64,000 nt of DNA, from the NCBI GenBank assembly GCA_973895155.1, contig OZ316896.1, positions 17,534,754-17,598,753 on the forward strand, given 5' to 3'. Shown here one piece after another: positions 1 to 53,912 of this stretch. Position numbers and translations under genes: made by a program. The notes under the pieces are model-generated. The model had not been told where the DNA came from, did no database searches, and saw only the letters and a program-made list of their open reading frames with translations. Numbering within the stretch: the first letter of the stretch is position 1; each line of letters begins with the position of its first letter. The DNA is from Marsupella aquatica (lineage: Eukaryota; Plantae; Marchantiophyta).

Positions 1-306
1 CGGGGAATTGCAGGTCTACACACCAGTCAATGCTTAGTCTTGCACTGCTACATGGAAAGATGATTTCTCTCTTTTTCCCTCCCCTTTTTAATCTTTAGTT
101 CCCTCCCCAGTTCCCTCCCCACACTTTTTGGCACCCTTGCCCAACCTTTGATGTCACCACCCTCTTCTCTTGCTCACCACATGCTTGATTGGGCCTCAAG
201 GAGGGCACTTCAAGGAGGGAGGAGGCACAGATGTGAGCCAATGCGTGCAAGGTATTGTTGTAACCATATATGGTATTACAGCAAAAAATGTAATTTTGGG
301 CGCCAC

Positions 307-337
307 CACTAGTGGAAAATAGTGTCCTTAATGACTA
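307..337 (+). repeat. Left terminal inverted repeat of the CACTA element
   Basis: cactagtggaaaatagtgtccttaatgacta matches the reverse complement of 17636-17666 at 25 of 31 positions. Confidence 0.9.
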
Positions 338-660
338 GAATGAGGACTGAAAAACGAGTCATATGTACCAATATATGACTAGAGTTTTTCTGTCATACCT
401 GCCTCGTCTTTTAGGACAGTCAATTATATAAGACAAATGACTAAAACTCTCACCAGTCATTTATGGTAGTCCTAAATGACATAATATTTCTGAAATGACA
501 TGTTGTCCTAAATGACTGAATGAACGGCCGTCAGTCATTTAGGCATGTCTTTAATGACACATATTTAAACAAATCATATTACAACATGTGGCAACTACGC
601 ACGGTTGTCATTATATGTCATTTCAGACATGTCATAAATGACACAATAATAAATCATTTA

Positions 661-930
661 AGGTGTCATTTAGTGTGTCATTGAAGGTGTCGTACATGGT
701 GTCATTAAAAATGTCATACAAGGTGTCATACAAGGTGTCATTGAAGGTGTCATACAGGGTGTCATTGAGGATGTCATACATAGTGTCATACATGGTATCA
801 TTGAGGGTGTCATTGAGGGTGTCATACATGGTGTCATTGAGGGTGTCATATATGGTGTCATTGAGGGTATCATACATGGTGTCATTGAGGGTATCATACA
901 TGGTGTCATTGAGGATATCATACAGGGTGT
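661..930. repeat. 12-bp subterminal tandem repeat (GGTGTCATTGAG / GGTGTCATACAT variants)
   Basis: About 20 head-to-tail 12-mers sharing GTGTCAT. They explain the low-complexity ORFs at 632-1072, 663-974 and 670-921. Confidence 0.9.
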
Positions 931-1039
931 TTTTAAGTAATGTCATTTGGGATGTATCTAAGAAGAGCTCATAGTTATATTCAAAATCACATACAATGAA
1001 TCCACTTAAAACCCTAAACAAAGACATCACTTTGTGCAT

Positions 1040-1184
1040 CATCATTGTATTCAGAAATTCACACTCCAACATTCACAAGCTCTAATATAGAATAATTGAA
1101 AAAATAGAAGTCATCATTGTATTCAGAAATTCACATTCCAACATTCACAAGCTCTAGTATAGAATAATTGAAAAAACAGAAGTC
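1040..1184. repeat. ~72-bp direct duplication downstream of the TnpA-like gene
   Basis: catcattgtattcagaaattcaca...aattgaaaaaa(t/c)agaagtc occurs twice in tandem. Confidence 0.85.
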
Positions 1185-1271
1185 TTTATGATGAAGTGAT
1201 AGAAAGTAGATAGAAACAATGGTAACCAAAATATTCAAAAATTCTCTGTTCTACATGATCAGAGAAAATGT

Positions 1272-4260
1272 TCAACACTTCCGAAGAAACCTAGCATTCC
1301 ACAATGTATTCATTCCTAACACATTCCGTAAGTAGAGTTGTTTCTCTTCTTTGTTGGGCATTGGCAATGCTGCATCACCACAATACACTGCCTTAACTAA
1401 TACTCGTACCCAAGGACTCTCAATCATGACACAATGAAATTTATCCTCTCCTGGTAACCTTGTCACTTCACCTCTAGCAAGAACTGTAGAGTGATCCACA
1501 ACACTTTGTACTTCTACAGCATCTCCTTTTGAAAACTGCCACACAAAATTGTTAGGACAAATACTGTCTTGTAGTACTGATTTGGGCATATCATCAATTT
1601 AAGAACATAAGCCAACTGAAAACAAATTCACCTTTGCTGCTGGATTTGGGGAGAGAACTGGTCCTCGTTCACTAGGTGAGATAGTGATAGGGGTTGATTT
1701 CTTGAATCTCTTTGAAGGCCTAGGTGGTGTAGACTCTTGTTCCTGAATTGCATTTGACACTATCTGTTCATCTATGACAGCAATCTCATCACTATCACCA
1801 TTACCAATGCTGCTTTGTACAACGTAAGGTTCCTGCAGTGCTCCCAAATTTGCTTCTCCCATACTTGGCTTTGGCTTCTGCCTTGTTAAAGTATCTGATT
1901 TCTCTCGCTGTGATACAGGATTCTTCCCTGAAGAAGCTACCACAAAACCAAACAATGAATGCTTAGAAAACTTCATTCTAAATTGAAAAATAAACTATTG
2001 CATATGTAACATGTTTAGAGTATAAGTTTGTATGTTCTTACCATCACCATCACCTGAGAAAGTAAGAGAACGTTTCTTGCTACTACCTTTAGGCTGAACC
2101 ACCACCTTAGTAGCAATTGCATTTGATAATTGCATATGGAACTAATTCTGTTGATTTTGTGCAATGAAAGAAGTCATCATAGATGTCAAATTGTCCACTT
2201 TGAATTCAAGCTTGGTTAAATTCTCCACAGACTGTTCAAGCTTGAGTAATCGAGCTGGTTCCTCAATTGTAGTTTCCCTGGACAGTGGAGTCTACATACA
2301 CAAACACACCATACAATGTCAATCATCAATGATAATTTGAACATCATGGATAACTGATAATCAAAATTAAATATATACACAGGTTTTCATTACATACCGC
2401 TGATCCATGTGCAGATCCAATTCCAACAAAACTACTGCCTTGATGTTCACCACTGGCCATAGATGGACTGATCTGCACTGGGGGGGACTGGACTACTAGA
2501 CACAAGTTTTGATATAACAGGGCTCGTCATTCCTTTTGCTTTCTGGAAACACATAATCACATTCAAAGCAATTGGAATATTAATGAAAACTCATCATGTC
2601 ATTGTTTATTCCTATACTAGATAAACACTTCAATTCAAATGACAGTCTAGACCTGCAATGAGATGGACCATCTGAAGATTCTTACCAATATTTTTTCTGC
2701 TCCAGCAGCCCCTCCTCTTCCAAAATGTTCTTTGTTCACCACTTCTGCCCTCCTTGCTTTCATCACAACACTCCTTGCAAGCAAAGCAGGACTATCAAAA
2801 TGATCCACCAGTCGTGCCCATTTCAATGGGTCAACATATTGAGGTCCTGGTTTGGAGCGATCACGGTTTACATACATCCTTCCAATAAGTATTTAGTTTG
2901 TGACGTTCTCTTTTCAATAACGTCCGACAGTGACTAATAAATTTCTTGTCAGACATTGACTGCTTATCTGGATACTCCCAATCTGCCTTCATCAATTTCT
3001 GCACATCCTCAATTATGTTTGGATCTTGTTTGTTCCAATCAGGTTCTGATACATCAAAAAGCCTCAAGACATTGGCACGTAGCTCCTCCATCCAATATGG
3101 TTTATTAGGATGAGAATCATCAATATCATTGTCATGAATCTGAAAAACACACCACAAATGATAGTCATCAACATTGGGAATGAAACAAACACCCAATTGC
3201 TTCTGAGTACACAAACTGTAGGCCACAAATGTGAAATGTGCAATGAAAATTTTACCATTATCAATTTTCCCTTCTTATTGTCAGCCCTTCTTGCACTACC
3301 GGTTCTCTGGAATTGTTTTTTGGCTTGCCTAGATTCCCTACGTTGCTCTGTTGCAGTCTTTCTTCCCTCTACATACACAATGAGCATCCAATATTGATCA
3401 TCCACAATTGCAAAATGAGGGACAAGAAATATTACAATATAATAGGAGGACGCTATATTGAATTTGACTTACCTGAACCCTGACTGGATGTCACTACTGT
3501 AGAGTGTCCAGATTTCCCAATCGATGTTGATGGAACCACCACTATACACATGCAAACCACTGGAGTTATAAATCCGACATTCATATAGATCAACATTGAA
3601 AAATACATTGAAAATTTCTGAAATTACTTACATTCAAATAGCTGGCCAGTCACAGGGTCTTTGTAACATTGCACTATGCCACTCATGGAAGGTCCAACCT
3701 TTGTAGGGGTTTCTTTTGCATCTGCCAAGCTCTTAGATGGAGGTTGTAGATGTTCCTGTCCAGATCAAGTTAAAACGAATGTTATTAAACATAATCATTA
3801 CCAATGTCTATAGTTTCCTCATAATGTTGGTGAAATGTAATAGGAATCTCACCTTGGATGAATTTTCTGGTTTCTCATCTTCACTATACTCAGCATCAGT
3901 GTCATAATCTGATTCAGAGCCCTCATCACCAGACTCTGCCATACTCACTGAGGCAATTCTTGATAGTCTGGAACTCTGTCTTCTCTGTGTGGTAACCTCA
4001 CTTCTAGGAGTTTGACGTGCACTTGTTTCCTTCTTGTGCCCTATGGTCTGTGTTGCACCCAGTCTACATGAGAGAATATCAATGAATGAATGACAAGTAT
4101 CAAAAACCAACTCATATTGTTGATGAGCAATATTAACACATCTTTGCACATTCAAAACAACATGCAAGATTATACTCACATGAAATTGAAATTTTCTCGA
4201 AATATCTCCCTGAATTTTCTATTGTTGTCTGCTACCTTCTTATTTCGTTCCTCTTCATAT
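1272..4260 (-). pseudogene. TnpA-like (Ptta / Tnp1-En/Spm-type) multi-exon gene of the CACTA element, disrupted
   Basis: Segments at 2647-3138 (WMEELRANVLRLFD...PQYVDPLKWARLVDHFDSP...ARRAEVVNKEHFGRGG) resemble Ptta/Transposase_24. The terminal segment 1272-1589 (VLARGEV...FHCVMIESPWVRVLVKAVYCGDAALPMPN...NTLWN) resembles the C-terminal Tnp1/En/Spm domain. There is a frameshift near 2865 and an in-frame TAA at 1599. The 5' boundary is approximate. Confidence 0.7.
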
Positions 4261-4361
4261 GGAGGTATTCGTTGCATTCACTGCTAGACTATGGCATGCC
4301 ATGTTAGTATGATCCCACTCCCAACTAAATGAAACCGGACTGTACAGTATCTTCAAACCAT

Positions 4362-7300
4362 TCATTTCCTTTTATACTTTCTTTTTCCTTTGTCTGTAGT
4401 ACTTGGTCCAGGCTCCTGTCTAGTTATACAGGCTTCTGCCAACTCTATGTGAAACTTAGCATTGTCATCCATAGTATCATGGAAATCAACTTCCATGTAA
4501 TCACCCAGCACTCTCGTAGACCTGGATTCCTTGTAGAGGATTGTCCTCCATGCAATCCCTTTATCATTTGGGTAAAAAAACACATGTTCTATCTGTCGTG
4601 GCAATACATAGTCCATTTTCTTGGAAGCACCCAGCTCCTTCTGAAAATTTACTTGCCACAATCCAGACGCATCATATCTCATACTTGCAATGGCTTTGGG
4701 AGTCCAAGATGGGTTTGCCCACCTTCCTTTGAAAAGGACCACTTCCTTTATTAGAGGCCCATAGTTCAACACTAAGATGTCTGTCAACACCCACACATAT
4801 TGTACAGATTCATCTACTGTTGCCCCTGACCTAATGACCCGCTTCTCAGTGAATGTCCAAGCCATCCCAGAATCAAAAGTCTTGAACCCAGATGAGTCAC
4901 AATCAATCAAGGAACCTAGTGATGGAATGGTCCTCCAATGGTGCCCATAGGCTCTGCAGGCCCTATACCGCAGTGCCTTCAGACTAGGTGGTACACTATA
5001 TGCTGCCAACACCATTCGTTCAAACTCATTCTCAAAATTATGCCTTCTAATTGTCACTTCAAACCATTCTCTAAAAGAAGGCAACTCATCCAAATCAGAG
5101 GGATAAGGCACAGGATTCCTCCGATTTCCTGGATTCTTCATCCATTCTTTCCAGAAATCTGCTCTGTGCTTGGTAACTGCCTCCTTTTGATCATCATAAA
5201 CCCTGCATGGCAAGAAGGACAGTCACCTCCTAGGCCCACACAATTTCTGCTCAAAACTCAATTTTGTTTAATAATAAACAACAGAGAACTTAACAATATA
5301 AACCATGCTCATACCTATACCATGGTTCCACTAGCTCTTCATTCTCCAGTATGTAATGATGCATAGCTATCATATCATTCCACTCCAAGGTGATTTGTTT
5401 TCCAGCTCCTTCCAAGACAATGCCTGCAACACCAGGATTCTCCTCCAAGTCCCATGTTCTCATTCCTGTCCCCTTAACATCGACATGTATTCAGAAAGGA
5501 ATCCTAAAGATTCATCCAGAAGGTAGCCTTCAGCCATAGAAGCCTCTGGACGTGCCTTGTTTCGAACATAACCCTTCAAGGTCTTTAGATATCTTTCTAT
5601 TGGGTACATCCATCTAATGTTCACTGGACCACAGATGTCTAGTTCCTGAACCAGATGAATCAGCAGATGGGTCATGACATCAAAGAAGCTTGGTGGAAAA
5701 TGAATTTCCATAAGGCAAAGTGTGAATGCATTATCCATCATCATAGAGTCATACTGTGAGGGATCCCAAACCTTGGCACAGATGGTACGCCACACATTGC
5801 TTACTCTAGCTATGGCCAACCGAACACCTTCATCAAGTAATCCCATTGTTGCCAATGGAAGGATTTGTTGCATGAGGTGGTGGAAATTGTGAGATTTCAG
5901 CCCTAATAACTTCTTCTTAACTGTGACACATTTAGCCAGAGAACAGTGGGCCCTTTAAAGGTCAACAATACCTCTAAGAACTTAGTCTTCTCTGTCTTAT
6001 TGAGGCAATATGGGGCTGGAAGCATGATCTTTGAATCCTTTTTTGGATCTGGATTTGGAACCAGCCACAGGTGTTCCCGCACGTCCATGACTTTCATGTC
6101 TTCTCGAACAGAAGGAGTATCCTTTGTCCCCAAAATAGTGTGCACAATGTTGTGTGCAAGATTCTTCTCACAGTGCATGGGATCCAAACAATGGTTGATG
6201 AGAAGTTTCTACATTGGAAGCACAGTTCAGTACAAACTAAGTTAGAATAAGAAATGCTACTCTTTGCTACTTAACATTACACACTGAGGGATTCAGTATG
6301 GGGAACCAGATACTTACACTCCACTACGGTAGCTTGTATAATCCAGTAACCCTCTTCACTCCATTCGCCTTTACTGGAGAATTTTCATCATCCAGTGCAT
6401 TCCCTGGTTTCTCCTCCACATATTCAGTGGCCTCCTCTCCCCAACGTTTCCTATCAGAGCTGGATATTCTACACGGTACGTGCAGCTCGTGCCTCTACCT
6501 CACCATTAAAGTATTTTGCCACTTCCTCTTTGCGGAAATAGTGCTTCTGTGGTAACTAGCAACGATGGCCAGCAAATCGTAACTTGCCCAACTGTTTGAA
6601 CCATGTGCCACACAATTTGGCCCACAAACCACACATCCTTTGTACCCTGCATGTTGTTGGCCAGAGACTAATCCATATGCAGGATAATCATTGATTGTCC
6701 ACAATACTGAAGCCCTTAGCTTGAACTGTTGCTGCAATCCTGGCCTTGGTAGAACATCAAAACAATCTACTCCTTCTGACCATAATGTCTCAAGATCATC
6801 CACAAGTGGAGCCATGTATACATCAAATTGTTCCTCGCTTACAGACACAGGACCTGGAATTAGAAGAGCTAGCATGACAAAGAACTTTTTTGTGGAAAGC
6901 CAAGGAGTGATATTATAATTCAACAGCAAGATTGGCCATGTAGACCAGGCAGTAGAATTATTCCCAAATGGATTTACCCCATCAAGTGCCAATCCCATTC
7001 ACACATTCCTTGGCTCAGCAGCAAAAGCAGGGTCAATCTCTGTGTCCACATGTTTTCATGCCTTTGAATCTACTGGATGTCGAACCATGTTGTCATTGCT
7101 CTTGTTCTCATGATGCCAAGTCATTAGCTTAGATGTACCCTTAGTGGCATACAATCTCTTCAATCGAGGGATTATAGGGAAATATCTCAAGACCTTCACA
7201 GGCTGTAACGAATTCCCTACTAACTTCATCTTTGGCTGATTACACTTGGAATAGTTGTCCAACTCTGTAGTCTCATTTCTAAATAACATACATCCATTCT

Positions 7301-8132
7301 CACAGACTGGGATTCTCTCATAGTCTAAACCCAATTTTCTCAGTAATTATTTTACAGCATATAGGTTCTTAGGGAGAGTGTGCTCTGTTGGCATTCCATG
7401 CTCAATCAATAAAGACAACATGGCATTCACTCCCGTGTTTGAGAACCTATTGTTGTGATAGATGTTTAAAAACAACAACATGAAGGAAACTACATCTGTC
7501 TTACTGCCTGGAAATAAGGGTCTCATGGCTTCTTCTAAAGACCCTTGCAGAGGGATAGGATTCATAGGATGCCTTGCTGTAGGTGTGTCCTCATGACTGG
7601 TCTCAGCAGAGGGTGGATCTGCCACATTCTCATCATTTTGAAACATTGAATCTATATCAAAAGGAGGATCATTGTCCACATATTCGTCAGACTCTTCAGA
7701 AGCTCTTGCCAATGTCTCCTGAAGTAAAACTCGTACTTGCTCTTCAACATCTATTGATGGTTGGCCTGAGTGGATTGCCTCTCAAGACATTCCTGCCCTC
7801 AGTGCCTCTGGACCAGATTTACGGATGTAATTGGATCTCCACTCCTCATCAGAAGAGTCTTCACCCTCTCCTACCCACACTCGACAGGCAGGGTAGCGGC
7901 CATATTTAAGAAGATGTTGTCGACTGGTCTTTCGAGTAGTCTTAACAATCCCTTTGCATTTCATGCAAGAGCAATACATTCTATGATCAGCACTACCAGA
8001 GCAAGCTGTCTGTTCCCGAGCCCATAAGTTATCATCACGTTGTTGTATTTGACATGGATGAGGTAAACTTCTCAGGTTGTCTGCCTCTGTTGTATGTGCA
8101 GTGTTATGTGACCCAGCCTGGCTAGAAGCCAT
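4362..8132 (-). pseudogene. TnpD/Tnp2 CACTA transposase pseudogene (transposase-associated Cys domain, Transposase_21, DUF4218, DUF4216)
   Basis: Collinear fragments: MYCSCMKCKG; GLDYERIPVCENGCMLF...VLRYFPIIPRLKRLY...WH...HPVDSKA; GLALDGVNPF...STWPILLLNYN...LWTINDYPAYG; DPMHCEKN; HFPPSFFDVMTHLLIHL...GPVNIRWMYPIERYLKTLKGYVRNKARPEASMAEGY; and a C-terminal DUF4216-like part. They are joined across in-frame stops (7782, 7347, 7056, ~6999), a frameshift near 6595 and a GT-AG intron at about 6209-6317. Confidence 0.93.
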
Positions 8133-9137
8133 GATTGCAGCGCTACCTAATCAAAAATACAGTTGCACATCTTTCTTCTGTGACATCTTGCAGAGCTCTA
8201 GACAACTCCAAAACCCTTCCATACCATCTTCTAGAGCGTCATGTGAAGCAAATGTGTGCACAAGTGAAGAATAGACATACATTTGAGGTACAGTACTCCA
8301 ACTGAGGTAAAGGCAGCTCCCACTTTGGCCTTCATTGCCAATAGAATAGTACATGCATGCCAACAACAAGTAAACAGATGACATTTTAGCAACTTGATCA
8401 GAAATTATTTACTTGGATACATTACCTAATCTCATTTCATATTGTAAGTGGCAATGGGTATTTGAAGGAGACCTGAATTGTTAAAATCAAAATGACAAAA
8501 GTTTACAAGACCAAATAAAGGCCTACCTCAACCAGATTTAAGGCAAGGGTGTGGGCAGTAGTCAGCAATCTTAGACCCTTCAAAACAGTGAGTACAATAA
8601 CAAACATTAATCATAATGTCCAACAATCCCCTCCTTCATTCTGTGACTTTTGAATTCATTTGTTGAAATGATCCTCTTCATCAAGGCAGTTGGTTTTGGG
8701 CAGGTACTAGAATAGATTCCAGATCACAACATTTCATCATCCCCACACAAACCAGGATACATATGGACAAGGGCCTGAAAGGGTTTCATGTAATGTACAT
8801 AATTAAACATATAGTGTTTTTGTGCAGTAGTAAGAATGAAATACACACTCAGTCTTCAAAATCATCAAAAATGAGAAAGTTCAGAGACCCGGGTTGAAGG
8901 AATTCTTAAGGCTGTGGGTTTAGAAAGGCAGTCTATACTACAAAACATGAGAGACATTAAGTGAAGTTTGCCTTCTTATGGCCAGATCCCTCAACGGGGA
9001 CAACAAAAATTTTAAGACCTTGGGTGGATTTTAGGTCTTGCTCAGGTCAGTGTGATGTTTCTTAGTTTTTTTGTTATGGATCTCCATTCAAGCTCTTCAC
9101 ATGTTTGCCACTGACACTCTTAACAGTCATCATACAA

Positions 9138-9587
9138 TTAGAATTGATATAACTGGTCTTTCTCCACTAAGTGCTGCTCTACTCCAGGGCAAACAGTCTC
9201 AACCCCTGGTCCCAAGACTGGCTCATCATGGTGGAACATTATACAGGCACACCTCCTCTGCAGCCTACTGTGTCCATCCCACTTATATATATCCCCTGGG
9301 CGCACTCGACATTTTGGGCAAAAATCCTCACAACTGTGGATACAGACAGAGTAGCATATATGCTCTGGTTGTACCACTCCATTATCAACTGCCACAATAC
9401 AAAAACCTATGGGCAAGGGTGGAGCATCTAGAGTAATGTGCCGACTGTACGTGTCTCTATGTACAGGCAAAAACTCCCATTGCACAGTAGAACTGGCAAG
9501 GACCAACCTCATTCCACTTAGCTTCACGCGTAGCCTCTCAGCTCTGCCTTCAAGGTCAGCTCCCAAGCTGCTGCGTGTCCTTGGCAT
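9138..9587 (-). CDS. Unknown Cys/His-rich ORF (149 aa from ATG 9587) inside the CACTA element
   Basis: Uninterrupted ORF on the transposase strand, MPRTRSS...EHICYSVCIHSCEDFCPKC...RRCACIMFHH. No family recognised. Confidence 0.35.
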   Translation of the reverse strand: MPRTRSSLGADLEGRAERLRVKLSGMRLVLASSTVQWEFLPVHRDTYSRHITLDAPPLPIGFCIVAVDNGVVQPEHICYSVCIHSCEDFCPKCRVRPGDIYKWDGHSRLQRRCACIMFHHDEPVLGPGVETVCPGVEQHLVEKDQLYQF

Positions 9588-9983
9588 TATTGTGACAAAT
9601 ACAAGAAGCAATAGTTTATCCAACCCAACACTTCAATGAATTTCATGCAACAATTTAACATTTAACTATTTCATACAATCAGATACTTTAGTCCATTAGA
9701 CAGTGTAGTCCAGTTCATACAATCAAACAATTTAGCCCACTTCATACAATCAGACATTTTAGTCCATTTCATACAATCATCCTACTTTAGTCCATTTCAG
9801 TTTAGTCCATTGAATCCAACTTGACACTTCACTCCATTTTCATCCAACCAAAAACTCAGGTGCTCCACTGTACCCCTCTAGTTCATTTTGATGTCCAGTA
9901 TACTTCCATAAGTCCTTAGCCTATTTTAAGTTCAGTATACTTTGTACTATGCAGTACTTTCTATACAACTGAAGGCTTATGAT

Positions 9984-10721
9984 CTATTTGAAATCATGAG
10001 GTGGCACATCAGAACCCTCTAGAATGACATGGCAATTGCAGTACACCATATGCCATGGACCAATATCCCATGGTTCTCTACCCTTCACCCCTCTCTTCAA
10101 GTGTTTGTCTGCCTCTGGTCCCTCATCCCTGCACCACGCACGAGGGCACCTACGACACTAGATAAATTCCCAGATGCCATCCGCATACTCCTTACACACA
10201 TCACAATAATGCCTTGGGCATATCAGAGCAGCAGGATGTGCATCTGAGTTCTCTGCGTACCCCATGAGAGGCAACTCGTTGGCCCTCAGTATGGTCCGCA
10301 GACATCCCACATGATAAAAAGAAAAGCAGTCATCCTGTGCACACTGGACCAGAAGGGGCTCATCTGTAGTGGGCTTTAGGGTTCGGCCAAGTAGTCCACA
10401 AGCAAAGCAACGACCTCGTTTCTGTTGACAGAGGTCACAGAGCCACTCCTTGGCCCAATCATGCCCTCTAGAAATGGCAACGGGTGTGCACTCAGGCCCA
10501 TGGCCATCAGGCTCCTTAGAATCCTGCCCATCAACTAAGTAATGGAAATGACGACTGCAAGGCCCATTGCAGAACAAAACAGTACCTCCCTCATCACATT
10601 CAAAACAACAAGGGGGGTCCATGCGGAGGTGCTCTTTATGGGCAAACTTTGGATCCAGCCAGGCAGCAGCAGTCCATGCCATGCCTGATGTCATGTGTGG
10701 ATCTGCAGAATTACCTTCCAT
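9984..10721 (-). pseudogene. EDM2-like tandem PHD-finger module carried by the CACTA element (one in-frame TAG at 10158-10160)
   Basis: CFECDEGGTVLFCNGPCSRHFH...WLCDLCQQKRGRCFACGLLG...VQCAQDDCFSFYHVGC...ICPRHYCDVC...FI*CRRCPRAW...PWD...MVYCNCH. By recall this follows the Cys/His order and spacing of the Arabidopsis EDM2 PHD cluster, and the similarity continues in frame past the stop. Confidence 0.78.
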
Positions 10722-12513
10722 ATTACAAAGGTGTACTTACATAAGAGATTTGAGTGCAAATGAGGAGATGTCCTGCCCACCTCAGTCTCACGGAGTACAA
10801 GCAATGTCCAAAATAACTTGGCTCTGGTTTATGTGTGCTCTGCACAGACAGCAAAATGTTAAACGCAATCAGTCAAGCAGACTGGGATAAAGTGTTCAGA
10901 GTGAAAGAGAAGTTTATTCAAAAAGGCAAGACTGAGAATATTCAAAGCAGGCTGCAGTCTATTCTACTGCTCAGGACACAAAGGGTAGTTCTAATGCACG
11001 GCGTCCCTTATCGCAGCTCCAATCCACTGATGCGGCTCACTGAATCCCGAACTCCAACTGACGCTTTGCAAAGGGGAAGAAAAGCAAAGGGGAAGCAGCC
11101 GCAAACGCAATAAGCTAAGACAACAATCTCATAGGAGAGAAAACAGGATTGGGAGAGAGGCAGAGCAAACAAGACTCTGTAAAAACTACTTGGTCCTTGG
11201 TGAACCTAGCATTACATGCTGCTCTACAGATTGGTACTGTCTTAAGAAGCTCAAACAATAATGCACAGCACTGTACTCAGAGCAGAGACAAGAACCAAAC
11301 TTCCAAGAAGGGAAAAATGGCCAAGGCATGACAAGACGCAGCTCAGTTAATCGAACTAGCAGCTTGCTTGTACATTAGTTGCTCTATCCTTCTGAACTCA
11401 ACTGAAAAAAAACGCTTCCCGTCCCTGCTAGTGTGGAGCGCAGCTCTACCTTAGTTGCAGCTCTGTCCTTCACTAAAGCTGAAATCCGGTTGATAGCTGA
11501 CTGTGCAATCCGGTTGATAGCTACTGCTGGTACTCGCCAGACAGGCCCTTCACTGAAACTGAAAACAAAATTTGAGACCATCTGGTAGTGTAAGTGAAAA
11601 TGAAAGCATTAAAAAGCAACTGAGTAGTCTCAGGGATTGAGGTGAGGTTTCAGTTTGCTTTGGCGCAGAAAAAAGGAGCAAATGCTGGGCCTAGTCATGG
11701 GGTAAAAAATGTCGTTGCGTATGGCATTTGGAAAGCTAGAAAAACAGACAGAGGGGTCCAAAAGCATTCATGAGCTAAACGAGAGCTCTACACACAATAG
11801 TAGCAACAAATCAATCAAGAAGAACACATTACAACACACATAAGTAATTACAAGTAGTAGGATTTAGCATTGACAAAATACCTGGTATTGACCACTCGCA
11901 GGACAATGTAGTCTCAACCACCAAGCAGGAATAAAATGAAGGCCGCAAAGAAGCAAACTATATGGCAAAAGGAGAAGCCTTACGGCCTCAGTCCAACTCC
12001 TCTGTAGCAAGCTTGCTTGCCTCCTGATGAGCACTACCCAAATCCAAGGTCGCCCTAAACCTCAATTGACTGAGAAAAATGCACATCCACCTTGATCATA
12101 GCTTCAATCCGCTGATGCAGATCACTACAACCCGAACTCCAACTGACACCTTGCGAAGGGGAAGAAAAGCAAAGTGGAAACAAAAGCATAAGCAAAAGGA
12201 AAAGGAAAACAAAAATGGGGATGCAAAGAAAATGGCTAAGACATGACAGAAGAAAAGCAAACGGCCAAGGCATGTTAGGACGCAGCTCAAAGCGAGAACA
12301 CAAGAGGCAAGCAATTGAGAGCAAAGTCAAGAAGGACCAAAAATGATGTAGCTATACACACCAACAACCGGAAACTCACTTTAAGCTGCAGGAACACTCA
12401 CTGCTGTTTGTTGATTGTTGCTGCTGCTATTGCTTCGCGCCCACCCGCTAGTTCGCCCAGGCCTGCAGCGCACCTCAGGAGCAGGAAGTCTCTTCAGAAT
12501 TGCAGGTCCGGGC

Positions 12514-12680
12514 TCGAGCTCAAGTGTCAACAACAGTGGAAAGGGAGCGAGCGAGCAACTCCCTTTAGGGCCCTAATGTGCAACTTGCGAAGCCTCGAGC
12601 TCAAGTGTCAACAACCGTGGAAAGGGAGCGAGCGAGCAACTCCCTTTAGGGCCCTAAACAATGCGCAACTTGCGAAGCCC
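12514..12680. repeat. ~80-bp direct duplication inside the CACTA 5' region
   Basis: ctcgagctcaagtgtcaacaac(a/c)gtggaaagggagcgagcgagcaactccctttagggccctaa occurs twice. Confidence 0.85.
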
Positions 12681-13847
12681 ACCTCGCTGCTTCACAGAAG
12701 GTTCGAGCAGTTAGCACTCCTCTTTGCTGGTCGCTGCTGCACTGATTGCTCACAGGTAGACTTCCCTTTCACCACAGAAAATCCCACCAGAACTTCAATC
12801 AGCTACCGATGGTGGCAGTAGGCAGCAGTAAGGAGTTCCCCCGAGAGTAAACAAGTTTGCGATTGATGGCAAACTTAGGAGGTCAGTCCTAGGGCAGCTT
12901 CCAATTGCCCACAATACAATGCGCGGCCCTCCTCCACCCTAAAATGTAGTCCCAAGTCTAAGCTGAAATCCACAGAGAAAACCCCAAGGGCCAACTAAAC
13001 GCCCGATGCTACTTGTGCGGATGTGTGTGCGACTGCGCTGTGCCTCTTTTTGCCTTGAAAACCTCCACATTCGATATGCTCTTCCCGATGTTATTTGGGA
13101 AAATGGAATCCAATGAGCCAGGAGTGCTTGGGGAGGTTCCCGCCCGTGACAAAGACCAGGGCCGGGGGATTGAGGGGATTACATGTGCTCAACGTGTGGA
13201 TGGTGGAGATTGCATCCAAACGGGACTATGAACGGGAACAACTCAGACCATCCAGATGAAGGGAGACTAGGGCCTTATTCCCCCAATTAAGGACTTAAGA
13301 AGGCGTTGTTAATAGGGGTGGGGAAAACTTTGCACCACCCAGTACTATTTTCTCACCCCCAAAAGTGCACATATTACTAAGACGCCCTGTAGAGGAATTC
13401 AAATTCTGATAAGCCCCCTTCAATTGCAAAGCAATCCATCAGCCGTAAGCAGGAGAAATCATTATTTATGTTTGCCTTAGTTAAAGTCAAGGTAGCGGCC
13501 TAAATAAAATTGTTTCAGAGGTAATTTAAAGAAGTTAGTAAGCTTAAAAAAATACGAATTATAAACCGGCCCACTACAATAAATGATAAAAATTGAGAAC
13601 TTCAGCACATCTGGACTCTAATGGAATATTAATTTTCTTGTCTCATAATCAATCACACACCTGACAGATCGACCACACCAGAACACGAGTCATTATGTAT
13701 GGCAGACATGACTATCGCATTGACATCTCTAATGACTGTTTTGCATGTCATTTAGGGTTTTTGACGGCTATTGGCACTCCACAAATAACCACAAACTTTA
13801 ATTGCAACCCTAAACCCCACACCATGTGGGGCGGGTAGCATCCTTAT

Positions 13848-14175
13848 CTCGGGGGGGTCACTATATGGAGGGTCATACATCGCGTGCGACGTTTTAGGGT
13901 TTGACCCCCCTAACTTTAAAGTGAAAAATATTTTTTTGCAAAGCCCTTTCTTTCTTAAAAATTTGTCATTTTTTATTAAAAAACCCCTAAAAACTTTATA
14001 GAAAGTATTTTTTGCAATTAAATAGGCCTATGTGTTCTTTAAAGTCGACCAATCAATAAAACATGCCCTATGTGTTCTTCCACCAAACTTTGGAAGTCTT
14101 CCGCCACACCCATTTAAATGGGCCTATACTTCGTCGCACGTGATGTGTCACTTCCGTGGAAGTGACCCCCCCGAG
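13848..14175. mobile_element. 328-bp MITE nested in the CACTA subterminal array
   Basis: Perfect 15-bp TIR CTCGGGGGGGTCACT / AGTGACCCCCCCGAG, extending imperfectly to about 44 bp. The 8-bp TSD ATCCTTAT lies at 13840-13847 and 14176-14183. The interior is AT-rich and non-coding. Confidence 0.9.
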
Positions 14176-14199
14176 ATCCTTATTAGTGGCCCCTATCAC

Positions 14200-16790
14200 C
14201 AGGCAAGATAGCCGATCAGCACCCTGAGGCTCCAAAGAGGCATATTGTCCATGGCATGCATGACTCCCGCATTGACATGAACAATGACTAGTTTCTAAGT
14301 CATTGGCATAAATGACATGTCAACGCACTACACAAATGACGACTGAGAAATTTCAGTCACCTAGGGAAAAAACTGAAAATTCCTTGGGAATGACAAAACG
14401 GGAGGGAATTGGACCCCTTTGGACAAATCATTCCAAAGTAGTAAAAGTTGGGAGTGTTTTTCCCGAGGTTTGGTGATGCCCTTGCTTGATGTAAAAAGTT
14501 GGCTACAAAAACCCTTTAGGAGACAAAGTGGCATGACTAGTGGCCCAGGGTTCATGAGTACCCTATCCCGCACCATGTGGAGTGGATATCATCCCCAATG
14601 GCCGGCTACAATCACAAATATTGTCAATCAGCCCCCGATGGCCCGAATGAGTCATATTGTCCATGGCATGCATGACTGCAACATTGACATCATGAATGAC
14701 GGGATTTTGTGTCATTAGCACCAATGACGTCTCCCGGCACTCCATAAATGACAAAAACTTTTAGTCACGTGCACAAATGACTCCAAATCCCTTGCAAATG
14801 ACCAAATGGGGGTTATTTTCATCCCTTTGGACAAATGAGTCCAAAGTCATACAACTTGGGAGTGTTTTGCCCAAAGTTGGGTGATGCTCTTCCAAGGTGC
14901 AAAATGTGTGTTTTAAAAAGCTTTGTGGAGGCCAAGTGGTAAAACTAGTGGCCCAGGGTTGTTGAGTACCCTATCCCACACCATGTGGAGTGGGTAGCAT
15001 CCCTAATGGTGGGCTACGATCATGGATATGGCCAGTCGACCCCCGGAGGCCCCAAAGAGTCATATTGTCCATGGCATGCATGACTGCAATAGTGACATCA
15101 TGAATGACCTATTTTTGTGTCATTTACATGAATGACGTCTCCCAGCACTCCCTAAATGACACAAACCCTTAGTCACGTGCACAAATGACTCTAGATCCCT
15201 TGCCAATGACTCACAATAGTGGTTTGCACCCCTTCAAGCAAATGACTCCAAAGTCATACAACTTGGGAGTGTTTTGCCCAAAGTTGGGTGATGCCCTTCC
15301 AAGATGTAAAATGTGTGCTTTAAAAAGTGTTGTGGAGGCCAAGTGGCATAACTAGTGGCTCAGGGTGTACAAGTACCCCATCTCGCACCATGTGGAGTGG
15401 GTAGCATCCCTAATGGCCGGCTACGATCACGTATATTGCGAATAAGCCCCCAAAGGCCCCAAGGAGTCATATTGTCCATGGCATGCTTGACTGCCGCATT
15501 GACATCATCAATGACTCATATTTGTGTCATTTGCTTAAATGACACCCCTTGGCACTCCACAAATGACAAAAACCTTTAGTCACACGCACAAATGACTCAA
15601 GATCCCTTGCAAATGACCAAATTAGAATGATTTGCACCCTTTTGGGCAAATGACTCCAAAGTCATACAACTTGGGAGTGTTTTGCCCAAAGTTGGGTGAT
15701 GCCCTTCCATGATGCAAAATGTGTGTTTTAAAAAGTGTTGTGGAGGCCAAGTGGCATAACTAGTGGCTCAGGGTGTACAAGTACCCCATCCCGCACCATG
15801 TGGAGTGGGTAGCATCCCTAATGGCCGGCTACGATCACGTATATTGCGAATAAGCCCCCAAAGGCCCCAAGGAGTCATATTGTCCATGGCATGCTTGACT
15901 GCCGCCTTGACATCATCAATGACTCATATTTGTGTCATTTGCTTAAATGACACCCCTCGGCACTCCACAAATGACAAAAACCTTTAGTCAAGCGCACAAA
16001 TGACTCTATATCCCTTGCAAATGACAAAATGCGAGTGGTTTGCACCCCTTTGGGCAAATGACTCCAAAGTCATACAACTTGGGAGTGTTTTGCCCAAAGT
16101 TGGGCCATGCCCTTCGAAGGTGAAAAAGTTGGGTCATAAAAATTATTGCGAGGCCAAATTGAGATAACTAGTGGCCCAGAGTTTAGGTGTACCCTACCCC
16201 GCACCATGTGGAGTGGGTAGCATCCCTAATGGTGGGCTACAATCATGGATATGGCCAATCTACCCCCGGAGGCCCCAAGGAGTCATATTGTCCATGGCAT
16301 GTATGACTGCAACAGTGACATCATGAATGACATATTTTTGTGTCATTCGCATGAATGACGTCTCCCAGCACTCCCTAAATGACACAAACCCTTAGTCACA
16401 TGCACAAATGACTCTAGATCCCTTGCCAATGACTCACAATAGTGGTTTGCACCCCTTCAAGCAAATGACTCCAAAGTCATACAACTTGGGAGTGTTTTGC
16501 CCAAAGTTGGGTGATGCCCTTCCATGATGCAAAATGTGTATTTTAAAAAGTGTTGTGGAGGCCAAATGGCATAACGAGTGGCCCAGGGTTGTCAAGTACC
16601 CTATCCCGCACCATGTGAAGTGGGTATCATCCTTAATGGCCGGCCCCTACCACCAATGGGGTCAATCAGCCACCAAAGGCTCTTAAGAGTCATATTCTGC
16701 ATGGCATACATGACCACAACATTGACATCCCAAATGACATTTGCATAAATGACATCTAGCAGCACTTGTCAAATGACTAGAAAGTTGAGT
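14200..16790. repeat. Tandem array of ~408-bp units (about 6 copies) in the CACTA right subterminal region
   Basis: The anchor catattgtccatggcatg recurs near 14240, 14650, 15060, 15465, 15875, 16280 and 16690. The near-identical ORFs at 15355 and 15763 are exactly 408 bp apart. Each unit carries many ATGAC/GTCAT motifs. Confidence 0.93.
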
Positions 16791-17635
16791 GAGAGCAAAA
16801 ATGATTGGGAATCCTTTGCAAATAACATGAATAATATATTGAAAAAAATGACATGAGCAAATATAGGCATGTAGTACCTAAATTCTAAACCTTAAACCCT
16901 AGACCTATGCCCGAGAGTGTTATTTGGCAACCTTGCATGCCCCCATATATACTCCAACATGTGAAATGTGAATACAGCTTAAGGAATGTAAACACTTCAG
17001 GAGTCCTTGGCATATATACGAAAGATGTAATAAATGGGTGCAAGTATATATAAATGTACATACTTATTAGAGATTATCAAGCCTTTAAGTTGTACATCAA
17101 TTTAATGATGAGACTCACAACAAAAGATGGCTTGTTAGGTCTCTAAATGTATTTCAAATCTAATATGTGAGTGCCACTAGTCGTTATATATACTACCATA
17201 CATTTTGGATGACTAATCATACCCTAAACCCTAAAACATATACTAAACCATAAACTTAAAAATAGTCATATGTTGTTTATCATGTCATTTATCACTTTTG
17301 GTTTAAATGACTACTAACATTTTAAAACACTGATATTTGCATATTTGATTTATTAGTCATTAGTCATCGTTGTCTGAAATGACTTCCCATATGTGAAACA
17401 CTGATATGATAGAGTTTTTGTTAATTGTGTCATTCACAAAGACTGTCCAAAATGACTACAACTCATGATTGTTGTCATTATAGCAGTCAAAGTCATTTGG
17501 CTCATTGGTTTAAATGACACTATTGCAAGTATTAGTCATTTTTTGCACCCCGTCATTTTGGACAGTCATTTCAATGTCATTAATGTTATGTCATTTACAT
17601 ATTTTATCATTTGAGCACATAAGTCATATGTGTCA

Positions 17636-17666
17636 TAGTCATAAAAGGCCCCATTTTCTACTAGTG
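17636..17666 (-). repeat. Right terminal inverted repeat of the CACTA element
   Basis: Reverse complement reads cactagtagaaaatggggccttttatgacta and is followed by the TSD CAC. Confidence 0.9.
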
Positions 17667-18409
17667 CACAATTCCATTGCGGAAGTCTTGGTGGATGTGT
17701 TCTCATCGACGGGCCAGGATGTTGTGATGGAAGTGTTGTTATTTGGGCCAGGTTGTTCTTGAAGAATTATTGAAGTACATTTTGCAAAAGTGTTGAGATT
17801 TCATGCAGCTAAGTTGTGGTGTGCCCTGAACATTGTGAGGCCAGGTACTTAGCCAGACTGCTATAATTGCAGAAGGAATGAATGTTTTTAATAAATGGGG
17901 ATGAACAATAAGACTGGGATGACAACTGAAGGGTAGACAAAGAAAAACATTTGCAAGAAACAAAGCCAAACTATGGCAAGATTGGGAGCCAAATAAAGTC
18001 CAAATATGGGGAAAGATCTAGATTCAAAAGGGTGCCCACTCCACACACAGGGCAAGCGATCAAATAAAGAGCCCAGCAAAACTTGACAGTATTTATGTAC
18101 ATCGCCGAATGTGCTCAACATATGTCTAAGAGCGAATGTTTGTCTTCGAGATCCCTAACCGATTCTGCACGACTGCACAAGAGTGCATGTTGAACACAAT
18201 AATAATGGATAAGCGATCGACTAACTGCAGCTACATAATGGAACACGATTCCATATTGTACTAATAGATCATGAATACCCTCCTAAAGTATGCAGTACAA
18301 TCTTACATAGAGCCACAAGTGAACAAATCTCCTTAGCGCGGGATCTAGAGTTTCAAAGCAAATGGGCGGCCGGCCCGAAAACAAAAGTGGAGTTTTACTG
18401 TAGTGTAGC

Positions 18410-19495
18410 TCAAAGCTGAATGGGGCACATCACAAAAGTACTGTGCCGAGGAAGGAAAGAAGTAGGGTGTGGTACTCTCTCCCACACAATCTCTCGGCTC
18501 GCAGATCCAAACCCTCTACTTTGTATCATGCAGTAACCATCCTTGAGTGCGTCGTCTTTCCAACGTGCAATTGCTATGAGCTCGTTGTTCAGTTTAAGGA
18601 GATACAACGGTTCAACGACAATGGGTTTGCTGATAGTTCCTGCTGCACGTTTGATTCTCCTTGAGATGGCATCGGGGATGGCATGACATATTGTAGAAGT
18701 GTTTGTACTATAATCGTAGTATAACACATGCTGATAGTTGGCACGGGTTAAGATTCTGTAGTAGCCTTTTGAGTTACCCGAAAACCGTCTCTGGGGAATT
18801 TTGTCCACTTCAAGCTGATTATGTGATTGTACCAGTACCCATCTCATTCGATTTCCGATTTTAGAATATTTGTACCAAGAAGACAGGAACCAGCATGCGC
18901 TTCCCCTCCGCACGAACGTTTCAGCTCCCCTTCTAGAACCACACAGAAAGTCAATTTCTTCCTCACTACTTGGTTGAAGTTCTAGAAAACTGCGGCCTGT
19001 CTGGACTTCCCAGTGTCCGTGCCCAGCCAGATCCAACACAAGAGTCTGAATGGCATCCCCGTAGCTGCAGGTGCATGGGCCGCTGGGACGTCGCGGTTCA
19101 ATGTGCAAGTTAGTGCATGCAGAACAATCGCAGTCACAACCAGCCTTCGAGAGGTATAGTTTTCCCTTTGATGTGAGAAATTGGGAGAACCAAGAGATTC
19201 CACCAAGACTAGGGGGAATTGGAGGAAGCCGATAGAAAGTTTTCTCTCTCATGCAATAGAGAGAAGCCACGAGCTTGTAGGAACCATGATCACGGTGTTT
19301 GATAACGACTAGCGTTTCTGTTGTTTTGGAGCGAATTCTTTCATCATAGACCTCCCGGCTTTGGATTGCTTTTTGCCAAGTTCGGCTCACTGACGCTAGC
19401 ACGTGAAAAGCTCTCCATGACAACTTTGGGACAATGTGGGTCAACGTCACGTCGTCAACTATCCCTGGAAGAAGCTCTTCCTTAAGATCAGTCAT
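18410..19495 (-). CDS. F-box protein, F-box/kelch-like, divergent C-terminus, single exon, 361 aa
   Basis: The N-terminus LLPGIVDDVTLTHIVPKLSWRAFHVLASVSRTWQKAIQS is a plant F-box(kelch)-type motif followed by an LPPIP motif. The ATG-to-TGA ORF is intact. Confidence 0.75.
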   Translation of the reverse strand: MTDLKEELLPGIVDDVTLTHIVPKLSWRAFHVLASVSRTWQKAIQSREVYDERIRSKTTETLVVIKHRDHGSYKLVASLYCMREKTFYRLPPIPPSLGGISWFSQFLTSKGKLYLSKAGCDCDCSACTNLHIEPRRPSGPCTCSYGDAIQTLVLDLAGHGHWEVQTGRSFLELQPSSEEEIDFLCGSRRGAETFVRRGSACWFLSSWYKYSKIGNRMRWVLVQSHNQLEVDKIPQRRFSGNSKGYYRILTRANYQHVLYYDYSTNTSTICHAIPDAISRRIKRAAGTISKPIVVEPLYLLKLNNELIAIARWKDDALKDGYCMIQSRGFGSASREIVWERVPHPTSFLPRHSTFVMCPIQL

Positions 19496-19653
19496 TTTGT
19501 TCTTGCAGTCTATCTTGCGAAACCTGCAGATCTAGGCGGTCTACTCAACAAGGTAATTGGATTAGAATTTTGGCTGTATTTAGTTTGATCATAAACGTCA
19601 AACAAATATATATGTCCCGGGCCTCTACTTAATTAATTATATATGAGAGAGCT

Positions 19654-25634: not shown

Positions 25635-28523
25635 CTATACAGTGTACGACTGCTGAATGTGTTCCATATCCAAACCTTTCATCTTCACCACAGATTCTAC
25701 ATGGCCCTTGAGAGTGTGAAGCTCTCTCAACTTCGCAATTTCAGCGCGTCTCTTTGCCAACTGGGCGATCTCGGGAACATCGGTGTTCGTAGGCTGGAAG
25801 GATGGCGACGAGCCTGCCGCTTCTCCGCCGCCGTCCTGCAGACCGTGAAGAGTTCGCTGTGCGTGTGCCCATTGAGCCTCCCGGTTCTCTTTTCCGAAAT
25901 TCTTCTCCGTACTAAATGCAGTCTTCCTCTGGAGCAGGAGATCCCAAGCACGTCCGCTCAAAACGTAGAAGATGGCGAACTTGATGAAATCGAGAGGAAT
26001 GTATGTGACGATGCTGAACAACCAGATGACCCCGGCCCAACCCCATCCCACTCCTCTGATGGTAGCAAATCCCCAAACGGCATAGACGGCCAAAAAGGTG
26101 GCCACCAGTTGGGCAAGGCAGAAGGCAAGCAGAAGGAGCATGCCCGGGCGTTCCAAGTAGGAGAAGCCTCGCGACCGAGTGACGAAGATCAAAGCTTGGC
26201 TGATGATACTCACTTGCAGATACACAGCGGCAGTGAGCTGGCTCCTGCTACCTCTGATTGACCTCACGCCGAAGCTCTTCGAGAAAAAGTCAGTCTTATC
26301 GGCTGCCCAGAAGAAAAGGACCGTCATCAACGCCAAGTAGGTGCCAATCACTACCCCAGTGGCGAAAATCTCCTTCAGCTTCCAACTGTCAGGGAGAGGA
26401 GACGGAATGACTCTGTCCTTGGAGATGGTCATGATCGTACCATCGTTCAATATGGCAATGACCAGAACCATAAATGGAGAGAAGTCAAACTTCCAAATCA
26501 AAGCGAGCAGGAGGAAGCCCAGGACGATACGGACGGTGATAGAAACCGCGTAGATCGTATAGTTCTTCATCCTCTGGAAGATGGCTCGACTAGTAAGCAC
26601 AGCGTGGATGATGACGCTGAGACCAGGCTCTGTCAGCACGATATCTGAAGCACCACGAGCTGCATCAGTTGCATCAGAAACAGCAATGCCAATGTCTGCT
26701 TTCTTCAACGCTGGTGCATCATTCACACCATCTCCCGTCATCCCACAGATGTGGTTCTGCCCTTGAAGTCGCTTCACAATTTCATACTTGTGCTCCGGAA
26801 ACACTCCTGCGAACCCGTCGGCCTTGAAAATCAGCTCGTCAATGTCGAGCCCTTCAATGGATGCATCCTTGCTCTTTCCAAGCAAGCTCGCAGACGGATA
26901 CATGTTCGAACCCATTCCAAGCCTCCGGCCCGTTTCTTTGGCAATGGCGAGCTGATCACCTGTGATCATCTTCACATTGACTCCCAGCTTGAGAGCCTCA
27001 CGAATGGTTTCGGCACTATCGTGGCGCGGAGGGTCGAAGAGCGGCAACAATCCGAGAAACTCCCAAGGACCACCTGCACCCTCCTTGTTTTTCTCTGGCA
27101 CTTGCTGCCTGGCCACGGCGAGAGATCGGAGCCCACGCTCAGCGAATTTATCAATCACGGAGTGCACTCTGGCAGCAATTTCGGCCTTGTTGTGGGCCAA
27201 GTGAAGAATCTCCTCCGGAGCGCCCTTGGTAGCTCTGTGCCAGATGCCCTCTTCATCGACGAAGGTAATGGCCGTGCGCTTGTCGACAGGATTAAAAGGC
27301 AGGAAGTGAATTTCCTGGATGCCTGCGCGAGCTTCTTTAGGATCCCCCAACATGCCTACGATGGCGGTGTCAATGGCGTCCTGATTCTCCATCCTCGCTG
27401 CTCTAGCTGCAGAGAGCACCACGAAATCTCTATCCACACCTTTCGTGAACACTTCTACGAGATTCTTGTCTACGGTCAATTTGTTCAGGGTCAAAGTACC
27501 GGTCTTGTCGCTGCAAAGCACATCCATACCTGCCATCTCCTCGATAGCAGTCATTCGCTTCGTGATTGCACCCTGTTGAGACAACTTGTGGGAACCGATG
27601 GCCATGGTAACAGAGAGCACAGTGGGCATAGCAATAGGTATGCCACCAATAAGCAGAACCAAAAGATTGTTGATTCCATCACGATACTTCCGTTTCTGAA
27701 TGGGGTACATGACGATAATCTCCACAATAATACCTAGCGCAATCGTGCAAATACAGAAACTTCCGATAGCTGTGAGAACTTTTTGGAAATGCCCCACCGA
27801 CTTGGTGCTGTCTACGAGATATGCAGCCTTGCCGAAGAAGGTGTGCACCCCTGTGGCAATGACCACGGCCTCGATTTCTCCTTGCTTGCAGGTCGATCCC
27901 GAGAACACCTCATCGCCTGGTTTCTTGGTGACGGGAAGCGATTCTCCCGTGAGAGAGGACTGGTCAATTTTTAAAGGATCGCCTTCGAGGAGACGAGCAT
28001 CAGCTGGGACAATGTCTCCCAACTTGATGCTGATGATATCTCCTGGCACTAGAATAGAAGCGTCCTGCTCTCCCCACTTCCCGTCTCGCAACACCTTTGT
28101 CTTCGGCGCCAGGCGAGCCATCAAGGCTGCAGCAGCATTACCTGCGTTGTTCTCCTCGATGAAACTGATAGTTGAATTGATGACAAGCAGCGTGATGATA
28201 CCGATGAAATCTTGCCAATCGGGAGGCCTTCCCTGGCCGTTTGCAAGAGCAATGGCCATGATTGCGGCAGCCTCCATGACCCATGACAACGGATTCCACA
28301 TGAACCCCAGGAACTTCAAAATTTTGCTCTCCGAAAATTCCTGGAGCTTGTTGGGGCCGAAGACGAGCAACCGAGCCTCCCCTTCTTCCATAGACAGTCC
28401 TTCCTTCGTGCATCGGAGCTGTGTGAAGACTTCTTCGACCGGGATGTGCTCCAGGTCGACGGTCTCATTTTGCAAGTCCTCGAAATTCATCAGGCCCGGC
28501 TTGGTCGCCCCGGCCTCCGCCAT
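25635..28523 (-). CDS. AHA: Plasma-membrane P3A-type H+-ATPase, intronless, 962 aa from ATG 28523
   Basis: Contains TGES, the DKTGTLT phosphorylation site, KGAPE, DPPR, MITGD and [16 protein letters not shown]. The C-terminal regulatory domain ends HIQQSYTV (penultimate Thr, 14-3-3 site). The ORF-track start at 28592 is a non-ATG codon. Confidence 0.97.
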
Positions 28524-53805: not shown

Positions 53806-53912
53806 CGCTGCTGCTGATCTGCTTCTGCTCTGCTGCTATGGCGTCCACAACAGTGAGTGTACACCCGCGAGAGTTTATCCTTGTGAACTCTCTTTCCGTG
53901 TATTCTTGCAAT

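Follow-up and report, generated by a model that had tools for sequence, protein, structure and literature searches.

Chromovirus chromodomains are fused targeting readers that steer integration. The recruitment of PHD readers by transposons has also been described, in the form of PHD and chromodomain fusions (available text of 10.1101/2021.11.30.470311; Chlamydomonas Gypsy-7a, part of PMC9940879). In Arabidopsis, the PHD fingers of EDM2 bind H3K9me2 and the AAE complex favours distal polyadenylation through heterochromatin, according to the available portions of PMC7472560 and PMC7529245. The known plant anti-silencing factors, VANC and TnpA, find their elements by DNA sequence, and the accessible part of PMC13547354 proposes that VANC derives from a captured host chromatin protein of the MAIN-like type; it also describes NDX-B as chromatin cargo in EnSpm. 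Arabidopsis Spm elements activated by TnpA are described as retaining H3K9 methylation (available text of 10.64898/2026.08.24.746577), so that a CACTA element is transcribed through that mark.

Here, we analysed a window of 64,000 nt from the liverwort Marsupella aquatica and found a complete CACTA element that carries an EDM2-type triple-PHD gene. Chromatin cargo in transposons is already known. An earlier note on this DNA knew of no description of such a gene for CACTA elements; our literature search, among largely openly accessible papers and the main texts of preprints, likewise found no published description of an EDM2 or PHD gene in a plant CACTA. The main text of 10.64898/2026.08.24.746577, whose supplement holds 962 Spm structures, contains no mention of PHD.

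The CACTA element in the window

Our search of the window delimited an element of 17,360 bp (307-17666), bounded by terminal inverted repeats and a CAC target duplication (Table 1). The two inverted repeats agree in 13 of 14 letters, the next best place in the window reaching 11 of 14, and clusters of the ATGAC/GTCAT core occupy both ends of the element (1-1000 and 13500-17650). Pfam matches to TnpD were above the cut-off for Transpos_assoc (E 3e-6), Transposase_21 (E 1.5e-42) and DUF4218 (E 5.4e-36), with a weak match for DUF4216 (E 0.006). The element is therefore a CACTA/EnSpm transposon by the four features tested, that is, inverted repeats, 3-bp duplication, subterminal repeats and TnpD domains. 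Since the TnpD domains lie in separate pieces, the transposase of the window copy is broken.

Table 1. Features of the CACTA element, in window positions
Feature	Positions	Strand	Remark
Target-site duplication CAC, left	304..306		identical triplet at 17667-17669
Terminal inverted repeat starting CACTA; element 3' end by gene orientation	307..320	+	
Subterminal repeats with ATGAC/GTCAT core; among them a tandem array of 12-bp units at 654-930	330..950		
TnpA-like region, fragmented, probably spliced; inferred from position only	1400..4250	-	ORF fragments
TnpD transposase, in pieces: Transpos_assoc, Transposase_21, DUF4218, weak DUF4216	4362..8150	-	
Frame full of stops, possibly what is left of a third accessory gene; looks BRCT-like	8531..9043	-	
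ORF2, intact 149-aa ORF with Cys/His; likely second accessory gene	9138..9587	-	
27-bp tandem repeat, 3.4 copies, between PHD gene and ORF2	9706..9799		
Accessory gene for three PHD fingers; 232 codons if it starts, as is likely, with Met at 10682	9984..10682	-	upstream in-frame Met at 10721
PHD finger 1, C4HC3, full ligand set	10428..10607	-	alignments
PHD finger 2, PHD_NSD, C4HC2H	10209..10409	-	Pfam
PHD finger 3, variant: Cys197 in place of host His, sixth Cys lost	10029..10205	-	
Upstream non-coding region, differs among subfamilies; a putative splice acceptor lies near 10703	10722..13700	-	
408-bp tandem array, 6.2 copies, rich in ATGAC/GTCAT core	14211..16729		
5' subterminal repeats	16730..17652		
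Terminal inverted repeat; element 5' end by gene orientation	17653..17666	-	
Target-site duplication CAC, right	17667..17669		

A Pfam search of the putative TnpA region found no match. For the heavily decayed frame that looked BRCT-like, Pfam gave nothing and the PDB nothing relevant. ORF2, between the PHD gene and TnpD, had no Pfam or PDB match either, its Atlas matches were unnamed or of low share, and its predicted fold (pLDDT 32) was unusable. The one relative of ORF2 that was found, P0269, is identical to it at 80 of 145 residues (55%) with no gaps and with conserved Cys/His. ORF2 is probably another accessory gene of the element. We considered a TATA-like word at 9291 as a TnpD promoter and dropped it, as it falls inside ORF2. 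The 408-bp array could serve as a dense TnpA-binding platform; separately, its summed depth was very high in the four public sequencing runs described below.

CpG observed/expected ratios were 0.14-0.49 across the element against 0.71-0.81 in three flanking genes, which matches the expectation for methylated DNA, and CHG was depleted over 13700-17666 (observed/expected 0.41). The window contains genes, and three intronless ones were noted outside the element: an RRP3 helicase (56846-58303, +), 94% identical to a Calypogeia fissa protein and 83% to that of Marchantia, which points to a leafy liverwort as the likely host, and two that we take, from their translations by eye, to be H+-ATPase-like (25635-28631, -) and F-box-like (18410-19531, -). 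The F-box-like gene is intact and lies about 740 bp from the element end. A 630-bp inverted repeat pair (79% alike, within 60010-61418) and a stretch in which a 41-bp unit recurs in tandem about 24 times (53896-54855) probably belong to other repeats.

The triple-PHD gene and its kin

The minus strand from 10721 to 9984 holds an intronless, Cys/His-rich frame of 245 codons with a single internal stop, a TAG at 10158-10160. The gene shares its strand with the transposase, and the broken TnpD follows 1.8 kb downstream. Pfam PHD_NSD (PF22908) matches it with 34.2 bits (cut-off 23.9; E 3.3e-8), and there are weak matches of PHD-1st_NSD to finger 1 (E 0.004) and of PHDvar_NSD to finger 3 (E 0.07). 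The earlier note had proposed a CACTA element with an intronless EDM2-type triple-PHD module in just this position, and the profile match, the inverted repeats and the CAC duplication bear it out; the outcome that the note named as refuting, a lack of any significant match to EDM2 or NSD PHD fingers, did not occur.

A search of 5.8 billion clusters returned two relatives among 68 candidates, P0001 (247 aa, 66%) and P0002 (226 aa, 55%). Both carry Gln at the window TAG, share with the window protein a part that opens with MA at window position 10682, and have their C-terminus only a few residues away from its stop. Because all three aligned proteins have MA at that place and because homology further upstream changes frame, Met14 at 10682 is the likely start. 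In both runs examined, X1 and X4, an A>G change at 10160, giving CAG on the coding strand, accounts for the whole contig depth, and since these runs read only CAG and the relatives have Gln, the TAG is private to the window copy. Reading through it as a former CAG, as had been suggested, is thereby justified.

The set of eight ligands is complete in finger 1 and in finger 2. Finger 1 retains the pattern C-x2-C-D-E-G-G-x-hydrophobic-x2-C-D, common to the AIRE, TRIM24 and CHD4 PHD fingers among the profile matches; its Asp is family-wide and Asn52 is private to the window copy. Those three fingers bind H3, and the H3-binding residues of AIRE and CHD4 are known. In finger 3, all three aligned proteins have Cys in place of the host His, the sixth Cys is gone and an invariant Asp is adjacent. 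The statement that VYCNCH completes a third finger holds in so far as finger 3 is present, but the finger is atypical, and the second C of the motif is private to the window copy, 95-100% of the contig depth encoding Arg. The AlphaFold model of P0001 (alignment of 70 sequences) reached pLDDT 75.5. Structurally it came closest to the PHDvC5HCH tandem of NSD2, with 78 residues aligned at rmsd 2.7 and a Z of 6.6, a middling score when taken alone. Foldseek with the predicted fold gave no match at E <= 0.001, its top rows being all PHD modules, a single-sequence PDB search with the PHD ORF returned no match, and a profile of the transposon proteins alone gave none of significance in the PDB (best E 0.16).

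The domains that flank the module in EDM2 and NSD proteins were also sought. No RFD domain turned up in the PHD ORF or in the six frames upstream, where a further exon may nevertheless lie, and the relatives are only 226-247 aa long; the motif of the C-terminal methyltransferase-like (ELP) domain is absent, the PHD ORF and its relatives ending just past finger 3; and SET and PWWP domains had no Pfam match in the PHD ORF or flanking frames. Judged from its sequence, the product stands outside both EDM2 and NSD, whose flanking domains it does not have, and is homologous to them in the reader part. These results agree with the proposal that only the reader module is present and that it is well diverged from EDM2.

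The best host matches were EDM2-like paralogues of Marchantia, Riccia and Calypogeia (E 1e-28 to 1e-22, 28-33% identity), and identity to any named host protein, Calypogeia included, was at most 33% in a comparison set without the host's own genome. Of the 226 matches that a profile search obtained among 1.84 billion representatives, only two were below 1e-30, both of them short, and no fused form of the transposon PHD lineage was seen among the 226; most of the 150 matches listed have EDM2 architecture or, where looked up, EDM2-like names. Trees of 55, 30 and 28 rows were built from subsets of 118 profile-covering modules, to which a few sequences chosen by hand were joined. In them, one clade inside the liverwort paralogue group holds the three transposon-type proteins; its stem is 3-5 changes per site long, and its support was 96 in a quick tree and 100/100 in a careful one, while a further tree gave a 95/99 split, to be read with a long-branch warning. 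Constraining the clade to join liverwort EDM2 of full length lowered the fit by 8.2 log units (p-AU 0.061), so that EDM2 proper is not rejected. Our results favour, short of proof, a liverwort EDM2-like paralogue lacking the methyltransferase-like domain as the donor, the capture having likely taken place long ago. The kinship with EDM2 claimed at the outset is thus upheld for the type of module, while the nearest proteins are the liverwort paralogues, with EDM2 proper still at the p-AU given above.

Further short, stand-alone EDM2-type PHD proteins came from Logan/JGI contigs (P0128, P0131, P0136, P0142, P0262, P0263, P0036, P0027/P0234 and P0133), and they are possibly cargo of other transposons. 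Among these additional modules, P0036 and P0234, as well as P0128, P0136, P0142 and P0263, fall on the paralogue side of the 95/99 split on long branches. The stand-alone modules of that side thus make up two or more long-branch clades, as repeated capture would predict. Grasses also have short PHD-only EDM2-like host genes, and the stand-alone form alone is therefore no proof of a transposon home. Five liverwort EDM2 or EDM2-like proteins (P0006, P0007, P0010, P0014 and P0016) start with MART or MARV, which resembles the N-terminus of histone H3.

Copies and selection

Six public runs contain part of the stretch, none of them recorded as RNA, and four, chosen for containing it, were used for contig placement. 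At 80% likeness, their contigs covered 30 of 30 bins of the element in each run. Summed depth over 10179-10765 was 776, 31832, 5507 and 3875 in the four runs, compared with 395-1081, 56276-107715, 3496-9103 and 6889-12774 over the TnpD bins and 66-168, 743-2217, 98-571 and 243-595 over the upstream spacer; the depth of the PHD ORF is of the same order as that of TnpD and well above that of the spacer, these sums not being copy numbers. The 781-bp PHD ORF region drew 84 and 98 contigs in X1 and X4, spread across 80-100% likeness. The PHD gene is multi-copy, with many diverged copies. Loose contig ends lie at 10684-10728, just 5' of the gene.

No indel at 8% share was listed within 9990-10740, the listed ones lying at 9976, beyond the stop, and at 9989, in the last codons. 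One X1 contig has 11 gap letters over 10612-10740, and one X1 joint skips 10445-10528, the letters between not being known. In X4, a contig joint from 8122 to 11170 bridges the 3-kb cassette at a depth of 1944, again with the letters between not known. The subfamily behind it may lack the cassette, in which case it would offer a natural control, or may carry a diverged version.

Selection was assessed on 38 of 85 variants (the best-supported 40, minus two upstream of Met14), using single-base classes and contig depths, with the same base changes at random ORF places as the expectation. Among the segregating variants, 10 of 18 were synonymous (5.0 expected, P 0.010) and 13 of 18 were at third positions (5.5 expected, P 0.0003), with a crude omega of 0.31. 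For the changes private to the window copy, 6 of 20 were synonymous against 5.5 expected (omega 0.89), and the contrast between the two classes was stable at all seven thresholds. This pattern is that of a gene which selection apparently maintains while a lineage is active and which decays once a copy has inserted. The stand-alone relatives, about 55-67% identical to the window protein, keep all ligands and the gene length. We are therefore confident, short of certainty, that the PHD gene is a selected accessory gene of the element, whatever its role, and not a fresh capture. The earlier note had suggested that the gene may be old and family-maintained and no recent passive capture, and had named as its opposite a single, neutrally evolving copy nearly identical to host EDM2; the multiple diverged copies with their synonymous excess speak for the former.

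The contigs and the proteins of the relatives are too short to connect the PHD gene with TnpD. A metagenome scan with the PHD alignment gave 223 pattern matches and no relatives, and a scan with a piece of Transposase_21 gave 13 loci, 41-49% identical, none of the 13 with a PHD module; these loci are distant, and 10 of the 13 are under 4 kb.

Possible roles and relation to known systems

The reading that we put forward, tentatively and at somewhat less than even odds, is that the PHD gene helps full-length transposase transcripts to arise in silenced chromatin by reading H3K9 methylation. By homology to EDM2 only, the PHD protein is predicted to bind H3K9-methylated nucleosomes on copies of the element, and the bound protein would allow full-length transposase transcripts to be made inside silenced chromatin. 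Because it has no DNA-binding or catalytic domain, it would have to act as an adaptor or competitor, with TnpA on the ATGAC repeats, or ORF2, supplying element specificity and host RNA-processing factors, putatively of the ASI1/AIPP1 type, bringing about the effect. A long, intron-rich CACTA element transcribed through H3K9 methylation would profit from a read-through factor of its own. Counting against this reading are the missing canonical zinc ligand of finger 3, the missing EDM2 regions beyond the PHD fingers and the X4 joint, with its possible cassette-less subfamily; and at about 30% identity and with a stem of 3-5 changes per site, the ligand of the module may have changed.

The anatomy of the element and the evidence of selection would also fit with the main rival, integration targeting, in which the transpososome would be anchored through the PHD protein to chromatin in a chosen state and insertions steered to tolerated sites. 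The lack of effector domains in the reader is what one would expect of a tether, and the available text of 10.1101/2021.11.30.470311 discusses transposon reader domains in that capacity. However, the known targeting readers it describes are mostly fused to integrase or transposase, whereas the PHD gene is separate and has its own stop, and the window copy sits close to the intact F-box-like gene in gene-containing DNA, although this is one insertion only; we consider targeting unlikely. Loss of about 450-500 N-terminal residues from a protein of a host chromatin family could also have produced a decoy, an effector-less module competing with host EDM2-like paralogues for a mark or partner and weakening silencing in trans. 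Accelerated evolution fits such an arms race, and for VANC, repurposing of a MAIN-like protein of the host has been proposed (available part of PMC13547354). Trans action would benefit its own element little, though, making long purifying selection harder to explain, and about 30% identity may not preserve partner surfaces, so that we regard a decoy as quite unlikely; our literature search found no studies of the liverwort EDM2-like paralogues.

The rewired finger 3, the lack of a significant PDB match for the transposon-only profile (best E 0.16), the NSD2 PHDvC5HCH tandem as best structural match and the fact that no aromatic cage was identified would all suit a module that has lost histone reading and serves as an interaction scaffold for ORF2, TnpA or repair factors. 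The AIRE/TRIM24/CHD4-type pattern kept in finger 1, with its family-wide Asp, argues against this and makes it improbable. The least probable explanation, to which we give very little credence, is a functionless host fragment amplified passively with the element, as in Pack-CACTA elements. The window copy is indeed broken and its private changes are neutral, a closer donor may exist in the host's own genome, outside the comparison set, and grasses show that short PHD-only EDM2-like host genes occur. But passive amplification would not account for the synonymous and third-position excess among copies, for the lack of any indel listed at 8% share over 9990-10740, or for full-length relatives that keep all ligands and gene length at 55-67% identity; moreover, the Calypogeia paralogues are only 28-33% identical, although the RRP3 of Calypogeia fissa is 94% identical to that of the window.

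Anti-silencing read-through thus remains our preferred, if tentative, interpretation of the gene. The wider proposal, that liverwort DNA transposons turned an EDM2-like reader module into a free, exchangeable anti-silencing gene that hijacks heterochromatin read-through and 3' processing, is one that we hold as doubtful. The small protein (about 230 aa, with intact relatives) is testable and, with Marchantia as a tractable host, offers a model for the transcription or targeting of DNA transposons in heterochromatin, and it draws attention to the unstudied liverwort EDM2-like family, the likely donor.

Arabidopsis EDM2, in the AAE complex, has a homologous atypical triple (2.5) PHD module, as described in the available parts of PMC7529245 and PMC7472560; compared with it, the transposon gene is a reader only, without RFD or methyltransferase-like domain, at about 30% identity and with changed ligands in finger 3. 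The liverwort paralogues MPTK1_1g03210, MPTK1_4g03050, R1sor_003797, CAM6087769 and CAM6107985 share with it the motifs DPPxC and VQCRRCP[KR]AW, carry the module at the C-terminus and have no methyltransferase motif, but they are mostly host proteins of 619-768 aa (one has 280 aa), whose N-terminal part the transposon gene lacks. The red-algal Plavaka elements, as far as the available text of 10.1101/2025.02.11.637652 describes them, belong to the EnSpm superfamily, are 17-19 kb long and carry the accessory cassettes PAG1-3, made up of separate chromatin-related genes that move between transposon families; their cargo, in another host lineage, consists of SET/N6A-methylase and 2OG-oxygenase enzymes, and no EDM2-type reader appears there. 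The PHD and chromodomain fusions, in the accessible parts of 10.1101/2021.11.30.470311 and PMC9940879, are found largely in retrotransposons, whereas here three fingers form a free-standing gene in a plant CACTA element. VANC of VANDAL (Mutator) elements and TnpA of Spm are encoded, as here, by separate accessory genes, yet in the available text of PMC13547354 and 10.64898/2026.08.24.746577 they are targeted to specific DNA sequences, while the PHD module is a predicted histone reader for which we found no homology to either. A selected, transposon-borne EDM2-type reader points to another route, with the repressive histone mark itself as the cue, and, if true, this hijacking of heterochromatin read-through would be distinct from the DNA-targeted VANC and TnpA systems.
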